In this document: piece by piece, positions 20,285 through 63,348 of the stretch
Numbering within the stretch: position 1 is the stretch's first letter
How the letters are laid out: the number at the start of each line of letters is the position of its first letter
Assembly (NCBI GenBank): GCA_016840085.1
Contig: JAEOTA010000004.1
Location: forward strand, 15,809 to 79,808
Direction: 5' to 3'
Length of the DNA: 64,000 nucleotides
From: Promethearchaeota archaeon
Lineage (GTDB): Archaea; Asgardarchaeota; Lokiarchaeia; Sigyniarchaeales; SOKP01
Notes under the pieces: generated by a model
The model's input: the letters and a program-made list of their open reading frames with translations, nothing else
What the model was told of the DNA's origin: nothing
Databases searched by the model: none
Position numbers and translations under genes: made by a program

Positions 20285-21607
20285 TTAAAAAATCAGAAAA
20301 TTTGTATATAATTTTAACTCATCTAGGACAAAATGAGTAAAAGTGTCTTCGATTTCTTCTGTTAGATAAAGTTGTCTTATGAAATTTCCATATTCCTCTA
20401 TTTTCTTTACACGAACAATAGCTAATAAACCATATTGTTCGCCTATCCGAAAAAGATCAGTAATGTTTTTGTTATTTTCTAATTTGAAGGCAAGTTCATT
20501 GTATTTGGATGGATCTTTTGGTTTAATTCGGAGTATATACTTACCTTTAAAACCTATTTCTTTCGGAGAGAAATCAACTGTGTAATTTAGAATTACACCT
20601 TGACGTTCAAGTTTTTTAATTCTATTATGTATCGTTGATTGTGATATTTCATCATTATGTTGTTCCTTAAAGATTTTTTTTATTTCGTATGTTGATATTG
20701 GTTTAAGTCCTTGCCCATCCCGCAAAATTTTTAATATTTTATAATCAATATTGTCTATTTTAAGATTTAGATCGATGTTTTTCTTATCTATTTTTATCCC
20801 AATCTTCCTTATAGCTTTAATTATCTTATTTATTACGTGTTCAGCGTCTGTAGTCTCTCTTAAACCGCTTACAATTATTTTACCATTTGAAGAAATTAAA
20901 ATGGTTGTGTTAATTTTTTCAAGCTTCATAACAATACCCGGAAATTTCTTGGGATTATATTTAATATCCATATGATTTCGACCGATCAGATTTAAATCAA
21001 TTTTCTCTGCAAGTTCTACCTCTGCATTCTCAATTATATAATCTGAATTAGTATCATAATCTTTTTTCTTTTTCAATATGAAATTTAATTGTTCTACGAG
21101 CTCCTCTTCAAAAGTCATATTTAAGCTCCTTAAGCTAATTCCATTTGTTTTAAACACCTTAATGGTTTCAATGATCTGATATTTTTTAAAATATGATCGC
21201 GCCATAATTTTATCAATTGTATTTAATATCTGATAATATTCCTCGGGGGATTTAAAGATAAATAAGGCGAATAGAGAAAATTCTCCAAAAATACCATCTA
21301 ACATTTTTATCTGGGGGATATTCAGCAATTCCTCAACAAGTTCAGGCTCTTTTGGGTTAGTTTTAATTTCAAGCATGACATATTTTAGATTATTCGGCCT
21401 AAGATTTGGATTAATATTAATTGTAAAATTAGTAATTATTTTTCGATCCCTTAAATTATCAAGCTTGTTTTGATATGTTTGTCTAGAGATACCTATCGCA
21501 CGGGAATTTTTTGAAATAATAAATTTGGTTTTTCCACTTAAATTTTTTATAAAACGCTGGACTTCTACTCGATCTTTATTATTGTTCATAATATAACAGT
21601 TTTGCAT
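20285..21607 (-). CDS. chimeric regulator: Lrp/AsnC module, single TBP-fold repeat, Lrp/AsnC module
   Basis: The N- and C-terminal thirds each have an HTH plus RAM-like domain. The middle reads IENAEVELAEKIDLNLIGRNHMDIKYNPKKFPGIVMKLEKINTTILISSNGKIIVSGLRETTDAEHVINKII. This aligns with one TBP repeat (IENIVAS..KYNPEEFPGIICHL..LLIFSSGKLVVTGAKS). Confidence 0.7.
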   Translation of the reverse strand: MQNCYIMNNNKDRVEVQRFIKNLSGKTKFIISKNSRAIGISRQTYQNKLDNLRDRKIITNFTININPNLRPNNLKYVMLEIKTNPKEPELVEELLNIPQIKMLDGIFGEFSLFALFIFKSPEEYYQILNTIDKIMARSYFKKYQIIETIKVFKTNGISLRSLNMTFEEELVEQLNFILKKKKDYDTNSDYIIENAEVELAEKIDLNLIGRNHMDIKYNPKKFPGIVMKLEKINTTILISSNGKIIVSGLRETTDAEHVINKIIKAIRKIGIKIDKKNIDLNLKIDNIDYKILKILRDGQGLKPISTYEIKKIFKEQHNDEISQSTIHNRIKKLERQGVILNYTVDFSPKEIGFKGKYILRIKPKDPSKYNELAFKLENNKNITDLFRIGEQYGLLAIVRVKKIEEYGNFIRQLYLTEEIEDTFTHFVLDELKLYTNFLIF

Positions 21608-35083: not shown

Positions 35084-35155
35084 GCGCCGCTAGTCTAGGG
35101 GTTATGATTCTGGCCTTCCAAGCCAGTGACCCGGGTTCGATTCCCGGGCGGCGCA
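35084..35155 (+). tRNA. tRNA-Gly(UCC), intronless, no encoded CCA
   Basis: GCGCCGC/GCGGCGC acceptor stem, anticodon arm CTGGC-CTTCCAA-GCCAG, T-arm CCGGG-TTCGATT-CCCGG, discriminator A. Confidence 0.95.
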
Positions 35156-37848: not shown

Positions 37849-40248
37849 TTGATATATCTAATATTTGTTTTTGGTGTTTTTTCAATAGTTAAATTTGATG
37901 AATCGAAACCTACTTACAATTATAGCATTTTTGGTGAAAACTTTACAATTAAATCAAGTTCTTCTAAGTATACTAATGCTACGGTAATTTCGGATGACTA
38001 TACTAATTGGAATAATGATAATAGCTATGATCCTTCAATTGCTGTAGATGATGGTGGAAACCTTCATGTGGTGTGGCATGATCATACTAATGGTCCATGG
38101 GGTTCTGATACTGAGATAATGTATGTGAATTATTCTTCTTCAGCCGGATGGTCTAATGCTATTGTAATTTCGGATAACGGTACTAATTGGAATAATGGAA
38201 TTAGTGAAAATCCCTCAATTGCTGTAGATGATGGTGGAAACATTCATGTGGTGTGGCATGATCATACTGATGGTCCATGGGGGACTGATATTGAGATAAT
38301 GTATGTGAATCATTCTTCCTCAGCCGGATGGTCTAATGCTATTGTAATTTCGGATGATGGTACTAATTGGAATAATGATAATAGTAGGAACCCTTCAATT
38401 GCTTTAGATAGTGATGGAAACATTCATGTGGCATGGCATGATCTTACTGATGGTCCATGGGGAACTGATACTGAGATAATGTATGTGAATCATTCTTCCT
38501 CAGCCGGATGGTCTAATGCTACAGTAATTTCGGATGATGGCACTAATTGGAATAATGATGAGAGTATATCGCCTTCAATTGCCATAGATAATGGTGGAAA
38601 CATTCATGTGGTGTGGCATGATCTTACTGATGGTCCATGGGGAACTGATGGTGAGATAATGTATGTGAATCATTCTTCCTCAGCCGGATGGTCTAATGCT
38701 ATTGTAATTTCGGATGATGGTACTAATTGGAATAATGGTGATAGTAGGAACCCTTCAATTGCTGTAGATAATGGTGGAAACGTTCATGTGGTGTGGCATG
38801 ATTTTACTGATGGTTCATGGGGTACTGATATTGAGATAATGTATGTGAATCATTCTTCTTCAGCCGGATGGTCTAATGTTATTGTAATATCGGATGACGG
38901 TACTACTTGGAATGATGGGGCGAGTTATGAGCCTTCAATTACTGTAGATAATGGTGGAAACATCCATGTGGTATGGTATGATTCTACTTATGGTCCATGG
39001 ACAAGTGGTGCGGATACTGAAATAATGTATGTGAAATATTCTTCATTAGCTGGATGGTCTAATGCTACAGTGATTTCGGATGGATCTGGGGGTATCTATT
39101 GGAATGATGATGACAGTGAGTACCCTTCTATTGCTGTAGATAATGGTGGAAACGCTCATGTGGTGTGGCATGATTTTACTGATGGTCCATGGGGAACTGA
39201 TAGTGAGATAATGTATACATTCATCGGTGATATAGTACCAGTTATTATAATAAATTCTCCTACTCCAAATGAATATATTGGAAGTGTTGCTCCACACTTC
39301 AATATTTCCATTGTTGGACTGTTTTTAAACACTACATGGTATACTTTAGATGACGGAAAAACCAATATAACATTCAGCGGATTAACTGGAACAATCAATC
39401 AAACAGAATGGGCCAAGAAAGGAAATGGTACAGTGACTATTAGATTCTATGCGAATAATACCGCAGGTAAAGAGGGATATGATGAAGTAACTGTCTACAA
39501 AGATACCATTGCGCCAATTTCATCAATATCCTACATTGTCCATAAAGAACCAAATATGGTGAATATATCAACAACTTTTACATTAACTGCCGATAATGCG
39601 AGTGGATCTGGGGTTTCTGTGATTAGATATAAAATTAATGATTCCGGCTGGTTAGATTATAATTCCCCCTTTGACTTAGATTTATATGCGTATGGTGATC
39701 TTCTTATCTCGTATCAAGCAATCGATGAAGTTGGTAATATTGAAACAGTAAACACAGAACTGGTGGAATTGATGGGACCTCCTTCTGAACCATGTGAACT
39801 TGTTAAACTTTTGCAAGTGGAGATAACTGAAAATTCTTATTCGACTGAACACTTCAATTTCACGTTCTTAGTATTTAACGAGCTTGGACAAGCGATTGAT
39901 TTCGCAACAATTCAGATCTGGTGGAATGGAAATGATGTTTCTGATGATGTTGTTAATCTCGGAAATGGACTATATTTTGTATCTTTAGAACCCAAAACAG
40001 TAGCACCTGGAGAAGATCCAATCCTACTTAAAATGATAATCTCTGCTTCTGGATATGAAGATAAACTGTTTGAAACGTATCTTGCTGTTGATCCTGAAAC
40101 TTTAGAAAAAGAAGTAGGAAAAGGAGCTGAAGGAGTTCCTCTCGTAACAATCATTATCGCAATTATATCAACTGTAAGTGGAATATCAGTAGCCGCAGCA
40201 GCAGTAGTCCTATTGCGTAAAAGGAAACGAGCTAGTGAAGTTATATAA
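37849..40248 (+). CDS. surface protein: seven BNR/Asp-box-like propeller repeats, Ig-like modules and a C-terminal membrane anchor
   Basis: Seven copies of ~60 aa (SIAVDNGGNIHVVWHDxTDGPWGTDxEIMYVNHSSSAGWSNAxVISDDGTNWNN; SDDGTNW fits the Asp-box SxDxGxxW). C-terminal hydrophobic helix followed by RKRKR. Confidence 0.75.
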   Translation: MIYLIFVFGVFSIVKFDESKPTYNYSIFGENFTIKSSSSKYTNATVISDDYTNWNNDNSYDPSIAVDDGGNLHVVWHDHTNGPWGSDTEIMYVNYSSSAGWSNAIVISDNGTNWNNGISENPSIAVDDGGNIHVVWHDHTDGPWGTDIEIMYVNHSSSAGWSNAIVISDDGTNWNNDNSRNPSIALDSDGNIHVAWHDLTDGPWGTDTEIMYVNHSSSAGWSNATVISDDGTNWNNDESISPSIAIDNGGNIHVVWHDLTDGPWGTDGEIMYVNHSSSAGWSNAIVISDDGTNWNNGDSRNPSIAVDNGGNVHVVWHDFTDGSWGTDIEIMYVNHSSSAGWSNVIVISDDGTTWNDGASYEPSITVDNGGNIHVVWYDSTYGPWTSGADTEIMYVKYSSLAGWSNATVISDGSGGIYWNDDDSEYPSIAVDNGGNAHVVWHDFTDGPWGTDSEIMYTFIGDIVPVIIINSPTPNEYIGSVAPHFNISIVGLFLNTTWYTLDDGKTNITFSGLTGTINQTEWAKKGNGTVTIRFYANNTAGKEGYDEVTVYKDTIAPISSISYIVHKEPNMVNISTTFTLTADNASGSGVSVIRYKINDSGWLDYNSPFDLDLYAYGDLLISYQAIDEVGNIETVNTELVELMGPPSEPCELVKLLQVEITENSYSTEHFNFTFLVFNELGQAIDFATIQIWWNGNDVSDDVVNLGNGLYFVSLEPKTVAPGEDPILLKMIISASGYEDKLFETYLAVDPETLEKEVGKGAEGVPLVTIIIAIISTVSGISVAAAAVVLLRKRKRASEVI
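37969..39230 (+). repeat. tandem 180-bp coding repeat, seven units
   Basis: The GCTGTAGAT(G/A)ATGGTGGAAAC-type anchor recurs at 38041, 38221, 38401, 38581, 38761, 38941 and 39133. Units are highly similar at the DNA level. Confidence 0.9.
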
Positions 40249-40525: not shown

Positions 40526-40646
40526 ACTTAATTTCTATATAAAAATTATCAAATTTTAATTTGAAGACTAAAAAAATTTTTATGAGAATCTATACTTTAT
40601 TCCAAAATTCGATTAACTAAAAAGACAGATATAATAGTAGAATCCT

Positions 40647-41327
40647 ATGAAATATAAGGCTATTATTTTTGATCTATTCGGTACTCTTGTCGATAATTAT
40701 TCAGTTCAGGGATACAACAGATTATTAACAGATATGGCTTCAGCTCTCGAATTACCTGGTAAAGATTTTTCAAAACTTTGGCGTGATACAACTTATGAGC
40801 GCGGAATTGGGACTTTTAAAACCACCGAAGAAAGTATAAGATATATTTGTAATATACTTGAAGTATCTGTAAGTGATGAAAAAATGAGGAAATGTGAACA
40901 GATCAGAATAGAAAGCATCCGCAAAGCTTTAACTCCTAAAAATGGAGCTATTGAAATTTTAAAAGGTCTAAGGGGATTAGGATATAAGATTGGATTAATA
41001 ACTAATTGCTCTGCTGATGTACCTCTTTTTTGGAAAAATACAGAATTCTCTCATTTCTTTGATGTTACAATATTCTCCGCTTCAGTAGGTTTGAAAAAAC
41101 CGGACTCTCAAATATATAATTTAGCATGTGAACAATTAGGAGTCGAACCAGACACATGCCTTTACATTGGAGATGGTGATAGCAATGAACTCTCGGGAGC
41201 TTCTCAGTTTGGTATGGATGCTGTTATGATCCGTGATCCAAATGAGATAGATCCCTATCATTTAGTTGAGATAAATTGGAATGGTCGAATAATTGAATCT
41301 TTCATGGAGATAATGGATCTGATTTAA
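40647..41327 (+). CDS. HAD-superfamily hydrolase
   Basis: Motif I IIFDLFGTLVD, motif II ITNCS, motif III K, motif IV GDGDSNEL. Confidence 0.85.
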   Translation: MKYKAIIFDLFGTLVDNYSVQGYNRLLTDMASALELPGKDFSKLWRDTTYERGIGTFKTTEESIRYICNILEVSVSDEKMRKCEQIRIESIRKALTPKNGAIEILKGLRGLGYKIGLITNCSADVPLFWKNTEFSHFFDVTIFSASVGLKKPDSQIYNLACEQLGVEPDTCLYIGDGDSNELSGASQFGMDAVMIRDPNEIDPYHLVEINWNGRIIESFMEIMDLI

Positions 41328-41423
41328 AGACTAAAAATATTTTTATGAGATTCTATACTTTATTTTTTATCTTATTCGGGATTAAATTTAATTTTTAATT
41401 ACGAATTAAGATTAATCATCTCA

Positions 41424-41617
41424 GCCAAGGTGGCGTAGCCCGGTATGCATTGGAGCTTTTCCACTGATGGGTAAGAACGCACCAGATCCATCGGATTTAC
41501 CGAGAAAGGTGATACTGAAGATCTGGGTATCGAGAACTCTGGTTGTTTCAACCATTTTCGATAAGGTTCAAAGAAAAAGCCCAATTTTGAGTTTTTTTGG
41601 GACTCCCTCCCTTGGCA
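41424..41617 (+). tRNA. tRNA-Phe(GAA) interrupted by four introns (best model)
   Basis: Exons are 41424-41449, 41482-41486, 41515-41534, 41565-41572 and 41604-41617. They assemble into GCCAAGG TG GCGT AGCCCGGT ATGC A CCAGA CTGAAGA TCTGG GTATC GAGGG TTCAAAT CCCTC CCTTGGC A. This is 73 nt with all stems paired, U8/A14/G18G19, a CUGAAGA anticodon loop and A73. T-runs follow. Confidence 0.8.
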
Positions 41618-41619
41618 AG

Positions 41620-41637
41620 TTTTTTTCTCTTTTTTTA
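41620..41637 (+). terminator. oligo-T termination tract after tRNA-Phe
   Basis: TTTTTTTCTCTTTTTTT lies immediately 3' of the discriminator region. Confidence 0.5.
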
Positions 41638-41816
41638 ATAAAGTATGTAAAAATAAATGTCATCATAAAAGAAAAAAAGGATATCCTAATCGAAGATTAG
41701 TATCTTATTGATTTTAATTGTATAATTTTGGTCCTCATACATTATATTTACGAAGATATTAAATTATTAAAAACACTTAGAATGTTGTTCTAATAAATTT
41801 TTTAAGTGAATATTCA

Positions 41817-44800
41817 ATGAAATCCAAATTAAAACAAATAATAGCTTTAATAGCTATAATATTGCTTATAACTTTTTCTTCAACAATTTATATAAATTTA
41901 TATGCTTATATCGATAACACCAATAATAAATCGTCTACAAATCCAGATGAGAATATGTCCACATTAAGCAGTAGTTCAAAAAGTCTCATCTATCATGAAG
42001 ATTTTAACGATACGTCGAGTTTTTGGGATCTGTATGATGTACCAAAGAGAACAATGGCTTTATCTTACCTTCCGAGTGATGATGCCTATACAAGTTCAGC
42101 AGATCCTTATGAGTATTACGGATCACAATCTCAATGTAAAGTAACTAATGAACCAGAATGGACTTTTTCTGGAGAATCATGGTTCATAGGTTCTCATTGG
42201 ACATTTCCTCTCGATATTTTCTGGGATGGAAGTAATTGGTGGTTGCTAGATATTAATTATCGCATAGTAAAAAAATATTCTTCTTCATGGGGTTATACTG
42301 GGGTACATTATGATCTTAGTCCTCAAAATGATGCACCAGCAGATATTTTTTGGGATGGAGCTAATTGGTGGATGCTTTCATTCGATAATATTGTTTATAA
42401 GTATGATGCTTCTTGGGGTTATACTGGGATTTCTCATGATCTCAGTTCTGAAGAAGATAATGCCCAAACTTTCTTTTGGGACGGGAATAATTGGTGGACA
42501 GCAGGAGGCGGTAATCAAAGAATTTATAAATATGATTCTTCTTGGAGCTATACAGGAATTTCTTATGATATTAGCATCTTAGGTATAATACCCCAAGATA
42601 TTTTTTGGTGGGATGGAGGTTATTGGTGGGTACTTGATAGTTCTATTTCCTATATATACTTGTTCGATTCTGATTGGGTCTATACTGCGATTTCTCATGA
42701 TCTCAGCTCTCAAGATAATCACCCATTAAGTATATTTTGGGAAGGAACTAATTGGTGGATGGTTGGATCTAATGATATTATGGTCTATAAATACGATTAT
42801 ACACCATGGGACAATCATGAATGGATTTACACGGGAATTTCTTATGATTTTAATCCTATTTTTTATGAACCAATCGATGTTTTTTGGGGGTATGGGGATT
42901 GGTGGATACTTGGACTCGATAGCCAAAGTTATAACTGGAGAGCGTATAAATATTCTTCTTCATGGGAATTTACAGGAGATCAAATCAATCTTACTCCTAT
43001 AGTTGAAGAGCCAATTGACTTTTTTTTTCATGATAGTGCTGTGATATATGTGATTGGATATAATAATTCACCCACTCCTGCAATTACCAGATTTTCATCC
43101 GACTGGGACGTATTTGATATTTCTTTTGAACTTTACGAAGATGGAGACCCAGAAAGTATATGTTGGGATGGAACTCATTGGTGGATGTTAGGAAGTGAGA
43201 ATGATAGGGTTTATCAATATGAAGATCATTTTGATTATTGGATGTATACTGAAGTTACATATGACATAGGCACTCAAAATAGCAATCCAAGAGATATATT
43301 CTGGGATGGAACTAATTGGTGGATGTTAGGAGGCAATGGAAAAATTTATAAATATACATCTTCTTGGGATTATACTGGAATCTCTTTTCCTCTTAGTTCT
43401 CAAGATAGTGATCCAACAAGTATATGTTGGGATAATTGGTATAATCATTGGTGGATGCTTGGTGCTGATCAAGGTATGATGTTTAAATATTTGGAACCAA
43501 GGGGGGAAGAGTATAGTTTTATTAAAAAGGAATTTCCCTATCTCTATACGAATTATACACAAAATTCCAACTTACGATGTTACGTGAATGATGGTGTTTT
43601 TCCTTCAACTATTTACTCTTTTTCTACCTCAAATTTTAACGAAGCATCTATCATTTGGGATAATCAACCATCAGAAGTAGATTCTTTAGCAAGTTCAGTG
43701 GTTACAGGAACTGGTTGGGCTACAATAAATCTAAGCCACCCCTTTTATTATTATCTACTTAAATGTGATTCAAATTCTATAGAGTTTAGTTCTTCAGAAG
43801 CCTCCAGTAATCATCCCACGATAAATTACTATCTCAGCAAACATTACCAAGGAGGAGGAATATTGTATTGTCAGACAAATGAATCGGAGGTCTTAACTTT
43901 AAGAAGTCCAAATAGTTATAATTTTAATTTAAAAAAAGGAGATAGTATAGAAATTACATTTAACACGACTTCTTCAAATAAAATAGATTTTAATCTGAGA
44001 TACACAGGAATAGAACAAAAGAGTTTTACGTTTTCAGAAATGGGAAATATAGATTTTACTACTCGAACAGTTGAGTTAATACTTGATGAAGATATGACTA
44101 TTGATCAATTTGAAATTAGTGGATTGTTTGATGTGACAAAGAACTTGATTATCGATGAAATCAGAATATATACTCCTTCAATTTATATTGTCACTCCAGA
44201 AAATAAGACTTATACTGGACCGATAGATGGATATTATCCTGCTACTTATTCGTTTGATGAGGGTGCTCTAGGTGAAGACCCGATTAATTGGATAGTAGAT
44301 GAGACAGGCGGAACTTGCAATGTTATAGGGGACATCGCTGGTCATAAGAGTGTAATTGAGCTTAATGATAAATCAGATCCTAATCAAGTTAGAGTAAGTA
44401 ATTATTTCAATCCTCAGATTTCAGGAATCCTTGAATTTTGGTGGATGACCAATAATGTAACAAAAAATTCTTACTTCAGGTTAAATCAGGATAATATTAT
44501 TGGAGTGAATTTGAGAATCTCTGATGGTTATTTCGGTTATTATGATTCAAGTCTGCATCAAATAAAAATAATTGAAAACAATAAATGGTATCATCATCAA
44601 GTTATATTTAACGCTTCAAAAGACAAGTATGATTGGTACATTGATGGGATCCTTGAAGTAAATGACGCTAATTTTGATAATCCAATAAATCTTCCAAATA
44701 GACTCTTATTTGAATCACATACTACTATGAATGATTATTGTACTTATTATGATGCGATTGGGTATTCATGGGACCCTAATTACAATATTGGCGATAATTT

Positions 44801-45941
44801 AATCGAGGGATTATTACTTAATTTTAAAAATTTAACTGCTTTAGAATGGATGGGATATTCATTGGACGGACAAGCCAATAAGACAATTTTAGGAAATGTT
44901 ACCATTCCCTTACCCCACGATGGAATCCATACACTTCAGGTATTCGGGAATGATTCGATAGGAAATATACATGAATCAATAATAAGATATTTCACGGTTG
45001 ATATTAATCCTCCTAAGATATTCATTAATCTCCCATATGAGAATGCTTTAATCAGTAGTAAATCTCCTAATTTTAACTTATCTATAGAGGGACTATACAT
45101 TAATACAACATGGTATACATTAGATAATGGCATCACAAATATTCCATTTAAAGGGTTAGCAGGACCAATCAACCAAACAGAGTGGAGTAAAAGACCAGAT
45201 GGCCCTGTTACTATTAAATTTTATGCAAATAATACATATGGGAAAGAAAACTCTTCAGAGGTTATAGTTAATAAAGATACAAGTATCCCAATAGTTACTA
45301 TTATTTCACCAGAAATCGATGAATTCTTTGGGAGCGCTCCACCTACTTTTAATCTTTCAATTACAGAATTGAATCTAAACAAGACATGGTATACAATAGA
45401 TAACGGAATTACTAACATCACTTTTAGTGGATTAACGGGAACTATTAATCAAGATGAATGGGATGGTAAAGTAGATGGACCAGTTACAATAAAATTCTAT
45501 GCTAATGATTCTTTTGGATTTAAAGGATATGCAGAAAGAATTATTTATAAGGATACTACTAAACCAACTTCGCTAATATCTTTTATACCTCATAGCGAAA
45601 CAATAAAAGTGAATAAATCAACGCTTTTTACAATAACAGTTGATGATGGATTAGGATCAGGGATTTCTTTAATTAGATATAAAATTAATGATTCTGCTTG
45701 GATAGATTATAGTGATCCCTTTGACTTATCTAACTATGAACCTGGTTATTATCTTATCACGTATTATTCTATTGATGTGGTAGGTAATATTGAAGCAGAA
45801 AATACAATTCTAGTAAAATTGGTGGGACTGCCTTCAAAAGAAGCGCCAGGAGGTATTCCAGGATATAACATTTATATCTTAATAAGTGTTTTTGGAGTTT
45901 CAATAATTCTACTTATAAAGCGTTATAGAAATTTTAAATAA
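41817..45941 (+). CDS. giant surface protein: signal peptide, about ten FWDGxNWW repeats, ConA/LamG-like domain, three Ig-like modules and a C-terminal anchor
   Basis: N-terminal MKSKLKQIIALIAIILLITF. Repeats are DIFWDG(S/A/T)NWWML..YKY.SSW.YTG.S.DLS. The LamG-like segment is WYHHQVIFNASKDKYDWYIDG. The C-terminus is PGYNIYILISVFGVSIILLIKRYRNFK. Confidence 0.75.
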   Translation: MKSKLKQIIALIAIILLITFSSTIYINLYAYIDNTNNKSSTNPDENMSTLSSSSKSLIYHEDFNDTSSFWDLYDVPKRTMALSYLPSDDAYTSSADPYEYYGSQSQCKVTNEPEWTFSGESWFIGSHWTFPLDIFWDGSNWWLLDINYRIVKKYSSSWGYTGVHYDLSPQNDAPADIFWDGANWWMLSFDNIVYKYDASWGYTGISHDLSSEEDNAQTFFWDGNNWWTAGGGNQRIYKYDSSWSYTGISYDISILGIIPQDIFWWDGGYWWVLDSSISYIYLFDSDWVYTAISHDLSSQDNHPLSIFWEGTNWWMVGSNDIMVYKYDYTPWDNHEWIYTGISYDFNPIFYEPIDVFWGYGDWWILGLDSQSYNWRAYKYSSSWEFTGDQINLTPIVEEPIDFFFHDSAVIYVIGYNNSPTPAITRFSSDWDVFDISFELYEDGDPESICWDGTHWWMLGSENDRVYQYEDHFDYWMYTEVTYDIGTQNSNPRDIFWDGTNWWMLGGNGKIYKYTSSWDYTGISFPLSSQDSDPTSICWDNWYNHWWMLGADQGMMFKYLEPRGEEYSFIKKEFPYLYTNYTQNSNLRCYVNDGVFPSTIYSFSTSNFNEASIIWDNQPSEVDSLASSVVTGTGWATINLSHPFYYYLLKCDSNSIEFSSSEASSNHPTINYYLSKHYQGGGILYCQTNESEVLTLRSPNSYNFNLKKGDSIEITFNTTSSNKIDFNLRYTGIEQKSFTFSEMGNIDFTTRTVELILDEDMTIDQFEISGLFDVTKNLIIDEIRIYTPSIYIVTPENKTYTGPIDGYYPATYSFDEGALGEDPINWIVDETGGTCNVIGDIAGHKSVIELNDKSDPNQVRVSNYFNPQISGILEFWWMTNNVTKNSYFRLNQDNIIGVNLRISDGYFGYYDSSLHQIKIIENNKWYHHQVIFNASKDKYDWYIDGILEVNDANFDNPINLPNRLLFESHTTMNDYCTYYDAIGYSWDPNYNIGDNLIEGLLLNFKNLTALEWMGYSLDGQANKTILGNVTIPLPHDGIHTLQVFGNDSIGNIHESIIRYFTVDINPPKIFINLPYENALISSKSPNFNLSIEGLYINTTWYTLDNGITNIPFKGLAGPINQTEWSKRPDGPVTIKFYANNTYGKENSSEVIVNKDTSIPIVTIISPEIDEFFGSAPPTFNLSITELNLNKTWYTIDNGITNITFSGLTGTINQDEWDGKVDGPVTIKFYANDSFGFKGYAERIIYKDTTKPTSLISFIPHSETIKVNKSTLFTITVDDGLGSGISLIRYKINDSAWIDYSDPFDLSNYEPGYYLITYYSIDVVGNIEAENTILVKLVGLPSKEAPGGIPGYNIYILISVFGVSIILLIKRYRNFK

Positions 45942-57415: not shown

Positions 57416-57519
57416 TGGGCCTGGCAGGATTCGAACCTGCGACATCCCAGTCCGAAGCCGGGCACCCTTTCTGTTTTTTTCCTTATTGGAAAAAAATATC
57501 CAGACTAGATTACAGGCCC
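57416..57519 (-). tRNA. tRNA-Arg(UCG) with a ~29-nt intron in the D-arm
   Basis: Minus-strand read: GGGCCTG TA ATCT AGTCTGGATA [TTTTTTTCCAATAAGGAAAAAAACAGAAA] GGGT G CCCGG CTTCGGA CTGGG ATGTC GCAGG TTCGAAT CCTGC CAGGCCC A. Confidence 0.85.
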
Positions 57520-58400: not shown

Positions 58401-58508
58401 GCCCACATAGTGTAGCCCGGTCCAGCATTCGGGACTGTCACTCCTGCGACGCGGGTTCAAAAAAAATATGGTTTCTCCGTGTTTTGGAACATCCCGCTGT
58501 GGGCGCCA
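58401..58508 (+). tRNA. tRNA-Asp(GUC) with a ~31-nt intron in the T-loop and an encoded CCA
   Basis: GCCCACA TA GTGT AGCCCGGTCCA GCAT T CGGGA CTGTCAC TCCTG CGAC GCGGG TTCAA[...intron...]AT CCCGC TGTGGGC G CCA. Confidence 0.9.
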
Positions 58509-62732: not shown

Positions 62733-62889
62733 ATTTCTCTCCTTTTGATAATTTATATATAATTTAAAATAATTTATTATAAATTTAATTTAGAAAGTAA
62801 TGTAATTAGGTTATCATTTTTATTAAAACCGTTAAATAATATTAACGATTTTTATTAAAAAATGTTTACATGAAGTTTACGTTCAATGC

Positions 62890-63060
62890 CGTTTATTCAT
62901 GAGGGCTAAAACCCGTAGCCTCTATCCGATGGCCAAAAGGCATCTCGGACTACTTAATCTTCTGAAAGATTATCATTCTAGTGCTATACTAGATGGGCTT
63001 TCAGCTACATGTCCTCCCGATTCGGGAGCAATTTTCTAAAAATGAGGGAAGTCCTCTGAG
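62890..63060. ncRNA. candidate structured RNA of unknown class
   Basis: An ORF-free, locally GC-enriched block carrying several strong hairpins: GAGGGCT..AGCCTC, TCCGATGGCC-AAAA-GGCATCTCGGA, CTAGT-GCTAT-ACTAG, CTCCCG-ATT-CGGGAG and GAGG-GAAGT-CCTC. Confidence 0.35.
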
Positions 63061-63348
63061 AATACAACTATAGTTCCAATGCAATGATACTATAAAAATA
63101 AATAATTCTTTCTTGGTTCACCTTTTATTTAAAACATTTAATTATTTTATTTCAATTAAAAAGAGATTCCTATTTAAATTGAATGAGTCATATGAATTTT
63201 GATATAATAATTGGATGTCTTGAGACATTAAAGCTAACAATAAACAAATTATATTAAAATTTTTTAATATGAATTAAGATTTTTAATATATTTTATGATT
63301 ATATATAATCAGGATAATAATACTATCAAATTTATTTTGTGTTAATCT

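Follow-up and report, generated by a model that had tools for sequence, protein, structure and literature searches.

According to the paper describing tRNAscan-SE 2.0, archaeal transfer RNA (tRNA) genes carry up to three introns (PMC8450103). In the Asgard lineages Atabeyarchaeia and Freyarchaeia, the sections of Valentin-Alvarado et al. 2024 dealing with tRNAs report introns in 92-95% of the tRNA genes, several introns in more than half of them, and many introns at non-canonical sites (PMC11291895). Supplementary Data 4 of that study, which contains 'intron 4' columns, lists four introns for Freyarchaeia Arg-TCT and Ile2-CAT by both tRNAscan-SE and R2DT, and for Freyarchaeia Leu-GAG and Atabeyarchaeia-2 Trp-CCA by R2DT; the tRNA-Phe(GAA) of Atabeyarchaeia and Freyarchaeia is given there with three introns in a gene of ~170 nucleotides (nt). 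The four-intron genes are found only in the supplementary table, and the main-text passages on tRNA introns contain no per-gene maximum, no analysis at the level of bulge-helix-bulge (BHB) motifs and no cross-genome analysis of a single gene (PMC11291895). In the present work, a 64,000-nt stretch of a Promethearchaeota archaeon genome (GCA_016840085.1, contig JAEOTA010000004.1, positions 15,809 to 79,808 of the forward strand; hereafter the window) was analyzed. The block at 41424-41617 (+) is very probably a tRNA-Phe(GAA) gene of a Loki-type Asgard archaeon (Promethearchaeota) with four introns, and EndA-type splicing is proposed as the mechanism of their removal. None of the introns is located at the canonical site 37/38. 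An earlier reading made without database searches (the sequence-only reading) had called such a gene, and the call is now backed by 21 syntenic orthologues and by ARAGORN. The same reading had put four introns at or beyond the known limit, the maximum of three being probably that of the tRNAscan-SE 2.0 paper (PMC8450103). With four-intron Asgard genes already tabulated, the gene is at, and not beyond, the documented maximum, and represents a new example of a phenomenon that is rare and known in Asgard archaea.

The 194-nt block is a GC island with a GC content of ~46%, compared with 29.5% for the window. It starts with GCCAAGG-TG-GCGT-AGCCCGGT and ends with CCCTC-CCTTGGC-A, after which two runs of seven T (T7) follow; the coordinates, both ends and the T-runs had been given correctly by the sequence-only reading. 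ARAGORN, with the intron options on or off, did not call a tRNA at 41424-41617, and Rfam did not recognize one there either at the gathering threshold over the window or at E<=10 over the locus. The weak Rfam matches at the locus (rimP leader, mir-484 and snoRNAs, E 0.4-8) were regarded as noise, and the overlapping open reading frame (ORF) of 77 amino acids (aa) at 41467-41700 as a mechanical ORF running across the tRNA. The 76-nt product obtained by removing the four introns listed in Table 1 was identified by ARAGORN as tRNA-Phe(gaa), with a perfect 4-bp D-stem GCGU/ACGC and an 11-nt D-loop containing A21. U8, A14, G18G19, A21, U33, the UUCAAAU T-loop and A73 are retained and a canonical cloverleaf is restored. 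The features of Phe identity, i.e. the GAA anticodon, the CUGAAGA loop, A73 and a class I body, are all present, and the loop and A73 are conserved in 22/22 of the genes compared below. The five exons lie colinear within the 194 nt, so that the gene is neither split nor permuted in the manner known from Nanoarchaeum, Caldivirga and Cyanidioschyzon merolae. The window also encodes proteins typical of archaea or Asgard archaea: archaeosine synthase, archaeal DnaG, a TBP-domain protein, TFB, eIF-6, Nep1, FtsY and a roadblock-like protein.

Orthologues were searched in one genome per GTDB species with the pattern GCCNNGGTGGCGTAGCCYGGT, which covers 21 nt on exon 1 and contains two N and one Y position. 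The 38 matched loci comprised 21 Asgard loci, L038 and 16 high-GC bacterial loci. The bacterial matches are located inside coding sequence and were rejected as chance, and L038, from a low-GC genome of Aenigmatarchaeota, turned out to be a different, intronless tRNA. The 21 orthologues originate from metagenome-assembled genomes of 27-32% GC, labelled as Promethearchaeota, Promethearchaeia, Loki-, Hermod-, Hod- or Odinarchaeota, or as 'uncultured archaeon' (L016, L027, L032). All 21 loci and the window gene could be parsed into the same five exon segments with 1-4 introns at shared sites. Intron 1 alone was present in L004 and L007; introns 1 and 2 in L009, L018, L025 and L035; introns 1 and 4 in L003, L016, L023, L027 and L034; introns 1, 2 and 4 in L013, L024, L031 and L039; introns 1 and 2 together with an intron at 53/54 in L017; and all four introns in the window gene, L008, L014, L032 and L037. 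Intron 1 was thus found in 21/21 orthologues, intron 2 in 13 (absent from 8) and intron 4 in 14/22 genes, and intron 3 was confined to the five four-intron genes. Homologues of the window genes at 35.3-37.4 kb and 46.0-48.4 kb flank the tRNA in the orthologous loci; since these flanking genes are common to them, the loci are orthologues and not paralogues. The closest relative is L032, with a nucleotide identity of 87-90%. The one- and two-intron orthologues are detected by the Rfam tRNA model with 31-39 bits.

The spliced product is 76 nt long in every gene, and L008, L013 and L014 yield exactly that of the window. No variation is seen among the 22 genes in the segment GAACGCAC, which precedes the anticodon stem; the conservation of exon 1 among the 21 orthologues is partly built in, as the search pattern derives from it. 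The stems vary in a compensatory manner. In the anticodon stem, C28:G42 alternates with U28:A42, and the T-stem occurs as GAGGG/CCCTC, GAGAG/CTCTC, GCGAG/CTCGC, GTGGG/CCCAC, GGGAG/CTCCC and AGGGG/CCCCT, with 100% of the pairs kept and double changes at 3 pairs. Such variation points to selection on the mature tRNA-Phe. The 3' CCA is encoded (…GGCACCA) in some orthologues (L009, L018, L027, L008), and is encoded neither in the window gene nor in most others.

The gene structure and the intron boundaries presented in Table 1 are shown by the sequence and its comparisons, as are the conservation, the covariation and the BHB motifs. Since relatives carry the segments interrupted by introns 2, 3 and 4 in uninterrupted form, the boundaries of these introns are fixed without any folding rule: uniquely for intron 3, exactly for intron 4 and to within one base for intron 2. 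Introns 3 and 4 begin and end where the sequence-only reading had placed them. For intron 2, a shift by one base (A^...A) is possible, and its proposed placement at 31/32 yields an identical product; the product was therefore right, and the site was shifted to 30/31 because the BHB rule selects between the two equivalent placements.

Table 1. Features of the tRNA-Phe(GAA) locus and other features of the window. Coordinates are those of the window; H, central helix; h', outer helix; ^, cleavage position.
Feature	Coordinates	Strand	Description
TATA-box-like element TTTTTAATTA	41392-41401	+	-32 to -23 of the tRNA 5' end; read from sequence; putative archaeal promoter
Exon 1, 21 nt	41424-41444	+	tRNA 1-20: acceptor 5' strand, U8-G9, D-stem GCGT, D-loop AGCCCGGT
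Intron 1, 29 nt	41445-41473	+	D-loop 20/20a; H CCCG/TGGG; bulges GU^A and UA^A; outer helix = D-stem
Exon 2, 12 nt, AGAACGCACCAG	41474-41485	+	D-loop 20a-21, D-stem ACGC, A26, anticodon stem 27-30
Intron 2, 28 nt	41486-41513	+	anticodon-stem 5' strand 30/31; H CACC/GGTG; bulges AG^A and AU^A
Exon 3, 21 nt, ACTGAAGATCTGGGTATCGAG	41514-41534	+	A31, loop CUGAAGA, anticodon-stem 3' strand, variable loop, T-stem 49-51
Intron 3, 30 nt	41535-41564	+	T-stem 5' strand 51/52; relaxed BHB; H AUCG/CGAU; bulges AG^A and AA^G
Exon 4, 8-nt micro-exon, GGTTCAAA	41565-41572	+	T-stem 52-53, T-loop 54-59
Intron 4, 31 nt	41573-41603	+	T-loop 59/60; full hBHBh'; H UUCA/UGGG; bulges AA^G and AC^U
Exon 5, 14 nt, TCCCTCCCTTGGCA	41604-41617	+	U60, T-stem and acceptor 3' strands, discriminator A73; CCA not encoded
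Two T7 runs	41620-41626, 41630-41636	+	read from sequence; likely transcription stop (function inferred)
tRNA-Gly(UCC)	35084-35155		no intron
tRNA-Arg(UCG)	57416-57519	-	one 31-nt D-loop intron, 57468-57498; H UCUG/CAGA; h' 9-bp U/A-rich hairpin
tRNA-Asp(GUC)	58401-58505	+	one 30-nt intron, 58462-58491, at 59/60, the site of tRNA-Phe intron 4
Direct repeat, ~43 nt	40559-40601, 41322-41364		93% identical
HAD-hydrolase gene	40647-41327		bracketed by the direct repeat
799-aa ORF	37849-40248	+	repeat-rich, secreted/surface, C-terminal transmembrane segment
1374-aa ORF	41817-45941	+	repeat-rich, secreted/surface, C-terminal transmembrane segment
440-aa ORF	20285-21607	-	TBP-like domain (~190-287) and Lrp/AsnC-type regulator domain (~280-435)
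GC-rich island, 195 nt	62869-63063		>45% GC, outside long ORFs, several hairpins

In the BHB geometry applied, the last six exon bases consist of a 4-nt strand of the central helix H and two bulge bases, and the last six intron bases are arranged likewise with a complementary strand of H; a BHB was scored when a 4-bp central helix lay between two 3-nt bulges on opposite strands, cleavage occurring after the second bulge base. Folding and scoring of each junction, put forward as a check by the sequence-only reading, gave a central helix paired 4/4 with a 3-nt bulge on either side for all four introns of the window gene. At a random pair of junctions, 4/4 pairing has a probability of 0.025 in the window and of 0.035 inside the locus. 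Across the orthologues, the BHB of intron 1 was paired in 81% of the cells overall and in 95% within H, that of intron 2 in 88% and 100%, respectively, and that of intron 4 in 92% overall, and in each of the three cases 0/500 shuffles reached the score. Slid controls gave 25-70% in general, 25-51% for intron 2 and 41-70% for intron 4. Covariation was observed as well: the first h' pair of intron 1 varies as AU:8/UA:7/CG:1, one H pair of intron 2 varies between CG, UG and UA and an h' pair changes from GC to AU, and 7 pairs of intron 4 show double-sided changes. The outer helices of intron 4 are the T-stem GAGGG/CCCUC (h) and AAAAA/UUUUU (h'). The pairing and its covariation indicate that the BHB helices are kept by selection across homologues.

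As four freely chosen deletions in 194 nt can force many sequences into a tRNA-like shape, and the first intron of the sequence-only reading was a false solution of exactly this kind, the cloverleaf as a whole might be suspected to be a product of chance. The probability of this explanation is practically negligible: 21 syntenic orthologues carry contiguous versions of the interrupted segments, and both the exons and the BHB helices covary. For the three junctions that orthologues fix independently, 4/4 central helices have a joint probability of ~2e-5 to 9e-5. With the orthologue series at hand, chance is irrelevant for the gene model.

The first intron is where the present model departs from the sequence-only reading, in which introns at 26/27, 31/32, 51/52 and 59/60 would leave a mature tRNA of 73 nt reading ...CCCGGUAUGCACCAGA..., with a D-stem GCGU/AUGC and an 8-nt D-loop. 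Deletion of the four segments does produce a 73-nt sequence that ARAGORN accepts as tRNA-Phe(GAA), and introns 3 and 4 as well as the product of intron 2 are common to both models. Nevertheless, this exact arrangement is very improbable. 'ATGCA' at 41445-41449, taken as exon, is conserved in no orthologue; the five bases after ...CCCGGT are variable and the match to a D-stem strand is coincidental. The discarded GAACGCA is invariant, its ACGCA (41477-41481) being intronic in that model and identical in 22/22 genes. Inspection of the sequence gave no 4-bp helix flanked by 3-nt bulges for the placement at 26/27 (41450-41481), neither there nor in the three registers reached by sliding along the repeated GCA (four registers in all), whereas the placement in the D-loop forms one. 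Finally, the 73-nt product lacks A21 and contains a G-U pair in the D-stem, in contrast to the perfect GCGT/ACGC stem of the 76-nt product. The preferred site of intron 1 is consequently the D-loop at 20/20a. Its interior is variable among the orthologues and its 3' end, ...NGGGTA, is conserved. The D-arm of the 76-nt product is also present uninterrupted in a bacterial tRNA-Pro, and the tRNA-Asp of the window has an equivalent 11-nt D-loop. The GAUGA and CUGA strings of intron 1 were considered as a possible C/D-like or K-turn motif. This candidate was dropped, because a guide RNA would not fit into introns of this length and because the motif is inconsistently present.

The whole precursor folds with -69.4 kcal/mol (z = -4.2), which is unusually stable. 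Imposing the BHB over the minimum free energy (MFE) fold costs ~2 kcal/mol for intron 1, 4 for intron 4, 7-8 for intron 3 and 8-12 for intron 2; introns 1 and 4 are classed as strict BHBs, and introns 2 and 3, with weak outer helices, as relaxed ones. The intron 3 BHB competes with a 9-bp helix. In the precursor of intron 4 with the other introns removed, the constrained fold was the cloverleaf with a textbook hBHBh'. Three exon-intron helices had been named by the sequence-only reading. Two of them, TATCGAGAA/TTTTCGATA and CCAGATC/GATCTGG, do exist in the sequence and in the MFE fold, but as competitors and not as BHB helices; the third, GGTTCAAA/TTTGAGTT, is used neither by the MFE fold nor by the BHB model. 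The actual BHB helices are CCCG/TGGG, CACC/GGTG, ATCG/CGAT and TTCA/TGGG. The competing helices of the MFE fold, CCAGAUC/GAUCUGG and UAUCGAGAA/UUUUCGAUA, are real but unconserved in orthologues, and are not splicing determinants.

Several observations weigh against a functional four-intron gene as modelled here. In the thermodynamic model, the BHBs of introns 2 and 3 have a stability 7-12 kcal/mol lower than that of the competing extended helices, and the central helix of intron 3, paired 4/4 in the window, is paired 3/4 in the other four genomes that have this intron. For intron 1, it is the BHB rule together with conservation that sets the boundaries; neither the GTDB scan nor a dedicated metagenome scan contained an orthologue lacking this intron. 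The 64-kb window encodes neither EndA nor RtcB, and since the analysis covers these 64 kb, a second, intronless tRNA-Phe may be present elsewhere in the genome. The matches that the metagenome scan did return, a bacterial tRNA-Pro and one chance match, were set aside.

A gene that escapes standard detectors, has relaxed and thermodynamically disfavoured BHBs at introns 2 and 3 and is known from 64 kb of its genome could also be a decaying pseudogene, i.e. a non-functional relic with insertions, the working tRNA-Phe being encoded elsewhere. There is only a slight chance of this. Orthologues with fewer introns have the same exons, and compensatory changes keep the stems paired. The four-intron layout recurs in five assemblies in which the intron interiors have diverged substantially while the BHB pairing is retained. 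Promoter-like and terminator-like signals are kept, and A/T-rich TATA-like elements are located at an equal upstream distance in the orthologues. Moreover, the exon-1 pattern matches exactly one such gene per genome in 21 genomes, including the complete chromosome of L024 (CP070831.1).

The transcription of the locus, the enzymes acting on it, the order of splicing and its function were deduced from the established knowledge of archaeal tRNA splicing. Transcription would start from the TATA-like promoter TTTTTAATTA, ~27 nt upstream, and would end at the T-runs. The precursor is expected to fold into a BHB at each junction, where an EndA of the broad-specificity (alpha-beta)2 type with L1 loop, the type reported for Asgard archaea (PMC5829648), would cut in each 3-nt bulge. 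An RtcB-type ligase would then join the exons, and CCA would be added later. The predicted product is a standard 76-nt tRNA-Phe with the junctions ...CCCGGU-AGAACGCACCAG-ACUGAAG...CGAG-GGUUCAAA-UCCCUC. The introns are probably removed stepwise, because intron 4 has the T-stem as its outer helix, and intron 3 interrupts this stem until it is itself removed, because the central helix of intron 2 shares C25 with the D-stem, i.e. with the outer helix of intron 1, and because exons 2 and 4, with lengths of only 12 and 8 nt, would have little to keep them in place after simultaneous cutting of both flanking introns. Sequential removal has already been described for closely spaced archaeal introns (PMC8450103), and an ordered removal was demonstrated by experiment in C. 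merolae (PMC3728597).

It is possible, if rather unlikely, that the 1-4-intron series records an ongoing gain, loss and copying of BHB introns between neighbouring sites; the indications are suggestive only. Introns 3 (51/52) and 4 (59/60) of L008 and L014 can be aligned almost end to end over ~18-28 nt, the hairpin core TTGCGATYCGCAAC is common to the 53/54 intron of L017 and the 59/60 intron of L031, and the 59/60 site holds unrelated sequence classes in different genomes. The cross-site similarities reached scores of 19-23, at about the 99.9th percentile of shuffles, in a set of 1194 non-independent comparisons. They hint at duplication or transposition and are no proof of it. A transposition-like spread between sites has reportedly been described for the tRNA introns of Thermoproteales by Fujishima and co-workers in 2010. 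If such copying is real here, these Loki-type lineages would offer a running example of BHB-intron mobility among the archaea closest to eukaryotes, and the 8-nt micro-exons would force a strictly ordered cut-and-ligate pathway.

Two further tRNAs of the window, tRNA-Arg(UCG) and tRNA-Asp(GUC), carry non-canonical introns, in agreement with the sequence-only reading. When run with its intron search, ARAGORN mistakes the former for tRNA-Trp(CCA) carrying an intron of 13 nt. At its 3' end, the tRNA-Asp intron reads TTTTGGAAC and matches the corresponding end of the 59/60 intron in the tRNA-Phe gene of L032, which may reflect a shared constraint or a shared origin. Upstream of the tRNA-Phe gene, the HAD-hydrolase gene looks like an insertion with a duplicated flank, because in L032 and L014 the sequence upstream of tRNA-Phe adjoins a homologue of 40552-40601 directly, without the HAD gene. 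An exact-protein look-up of this gene returned only a 1.4-kb Logan contig, which holds no neighbourhood information. The 799- and 1374-aa ORFs flanking the tRNA have C-terminal modules in common; most orthologous loci lack them at the syntenic position, and they look like lineage-specific insertions next to the tRNA gene. Farther away, the GC-rich island had a fold z-score of -1.7 and no Rfam match at E<=1, and the 440-aa ORF combines a TBP fold with a ligand-sensing transcription regulator, which is an unusual fusion.

Due to the invisibility of the gene to ARAGORN and Rfam, a genome of this lineage would seem to be without tRNA-Phe; incomplete tRNA sets of just this sort were described in Asgard genomes by Hirata et al. 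2018 (PMC5829648). No description of the tRNA intron loads of Loki-type genomes or of a four-intron tRNA-Phe was found in the full-text literature, subscription journals being outside its coverage. Very high tRNA intron loads, of up to four per gene, reach past Atabeyarchaeia and Freyarchaeia into Loki-type genomes, and the quoted limit of three per gene is outdated. The locus reveals no new mechanism. Its main added value is the series of one to four introns in one syntenic orthologous gene, which provides precisely dated presence/absence characters for the gain and loss of BHB introns and for the substrate range of the Asgard EndA.

Among the known systems, Atabeyarchaeia and Freyarchaeia resemble the window in belonging to the Asgard superphylum and, in the parts of the study concerned with tRNAs, in having mostly non-canonical sites and many multi-intron genes (PMC11291895). 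The window differs in representing another, low-GC Loki-type lineage in which tRNA-Phe itself carries four introns, the comparison covering intron numbers. In the heavily interrupted nuclear tRNA genes of C. merolae, a red alga, ectopic BHB introns occur in the D-arm, the T-stem and the T-loop, with at most three per gene (Soma et al. 2013, PMC3728597), and their ordered removal, followed by reverse transcription PCR, correlated with the stability of the BHBs (PMC3728597). Unlike the window gene, these genes belong to a eukaryotic nucleus, some of them are also permuted, and the maximum is three introns (PMC3728597). Thermoproteales have short non-canonical BHB introns too, including those at 59/60, in the D-loop and in stems (Sugahara et al. 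2008; Fujishima et al. 2010), and, as far as the tRNAscan-SE 2.0 paper covers them, their removal is sometimes necessarily sequential and is carried out by an (alpha-beta)2 endonuclease with a specific loop (PMC8450103). In the same account, however, these GC-rich hyperthermophilic members of TACK reach a maximum of three introns per gene (PMC8450103), whereas the window gene has four, in an AT-rich Asgard archaeon and with U/A-rich h' helices.

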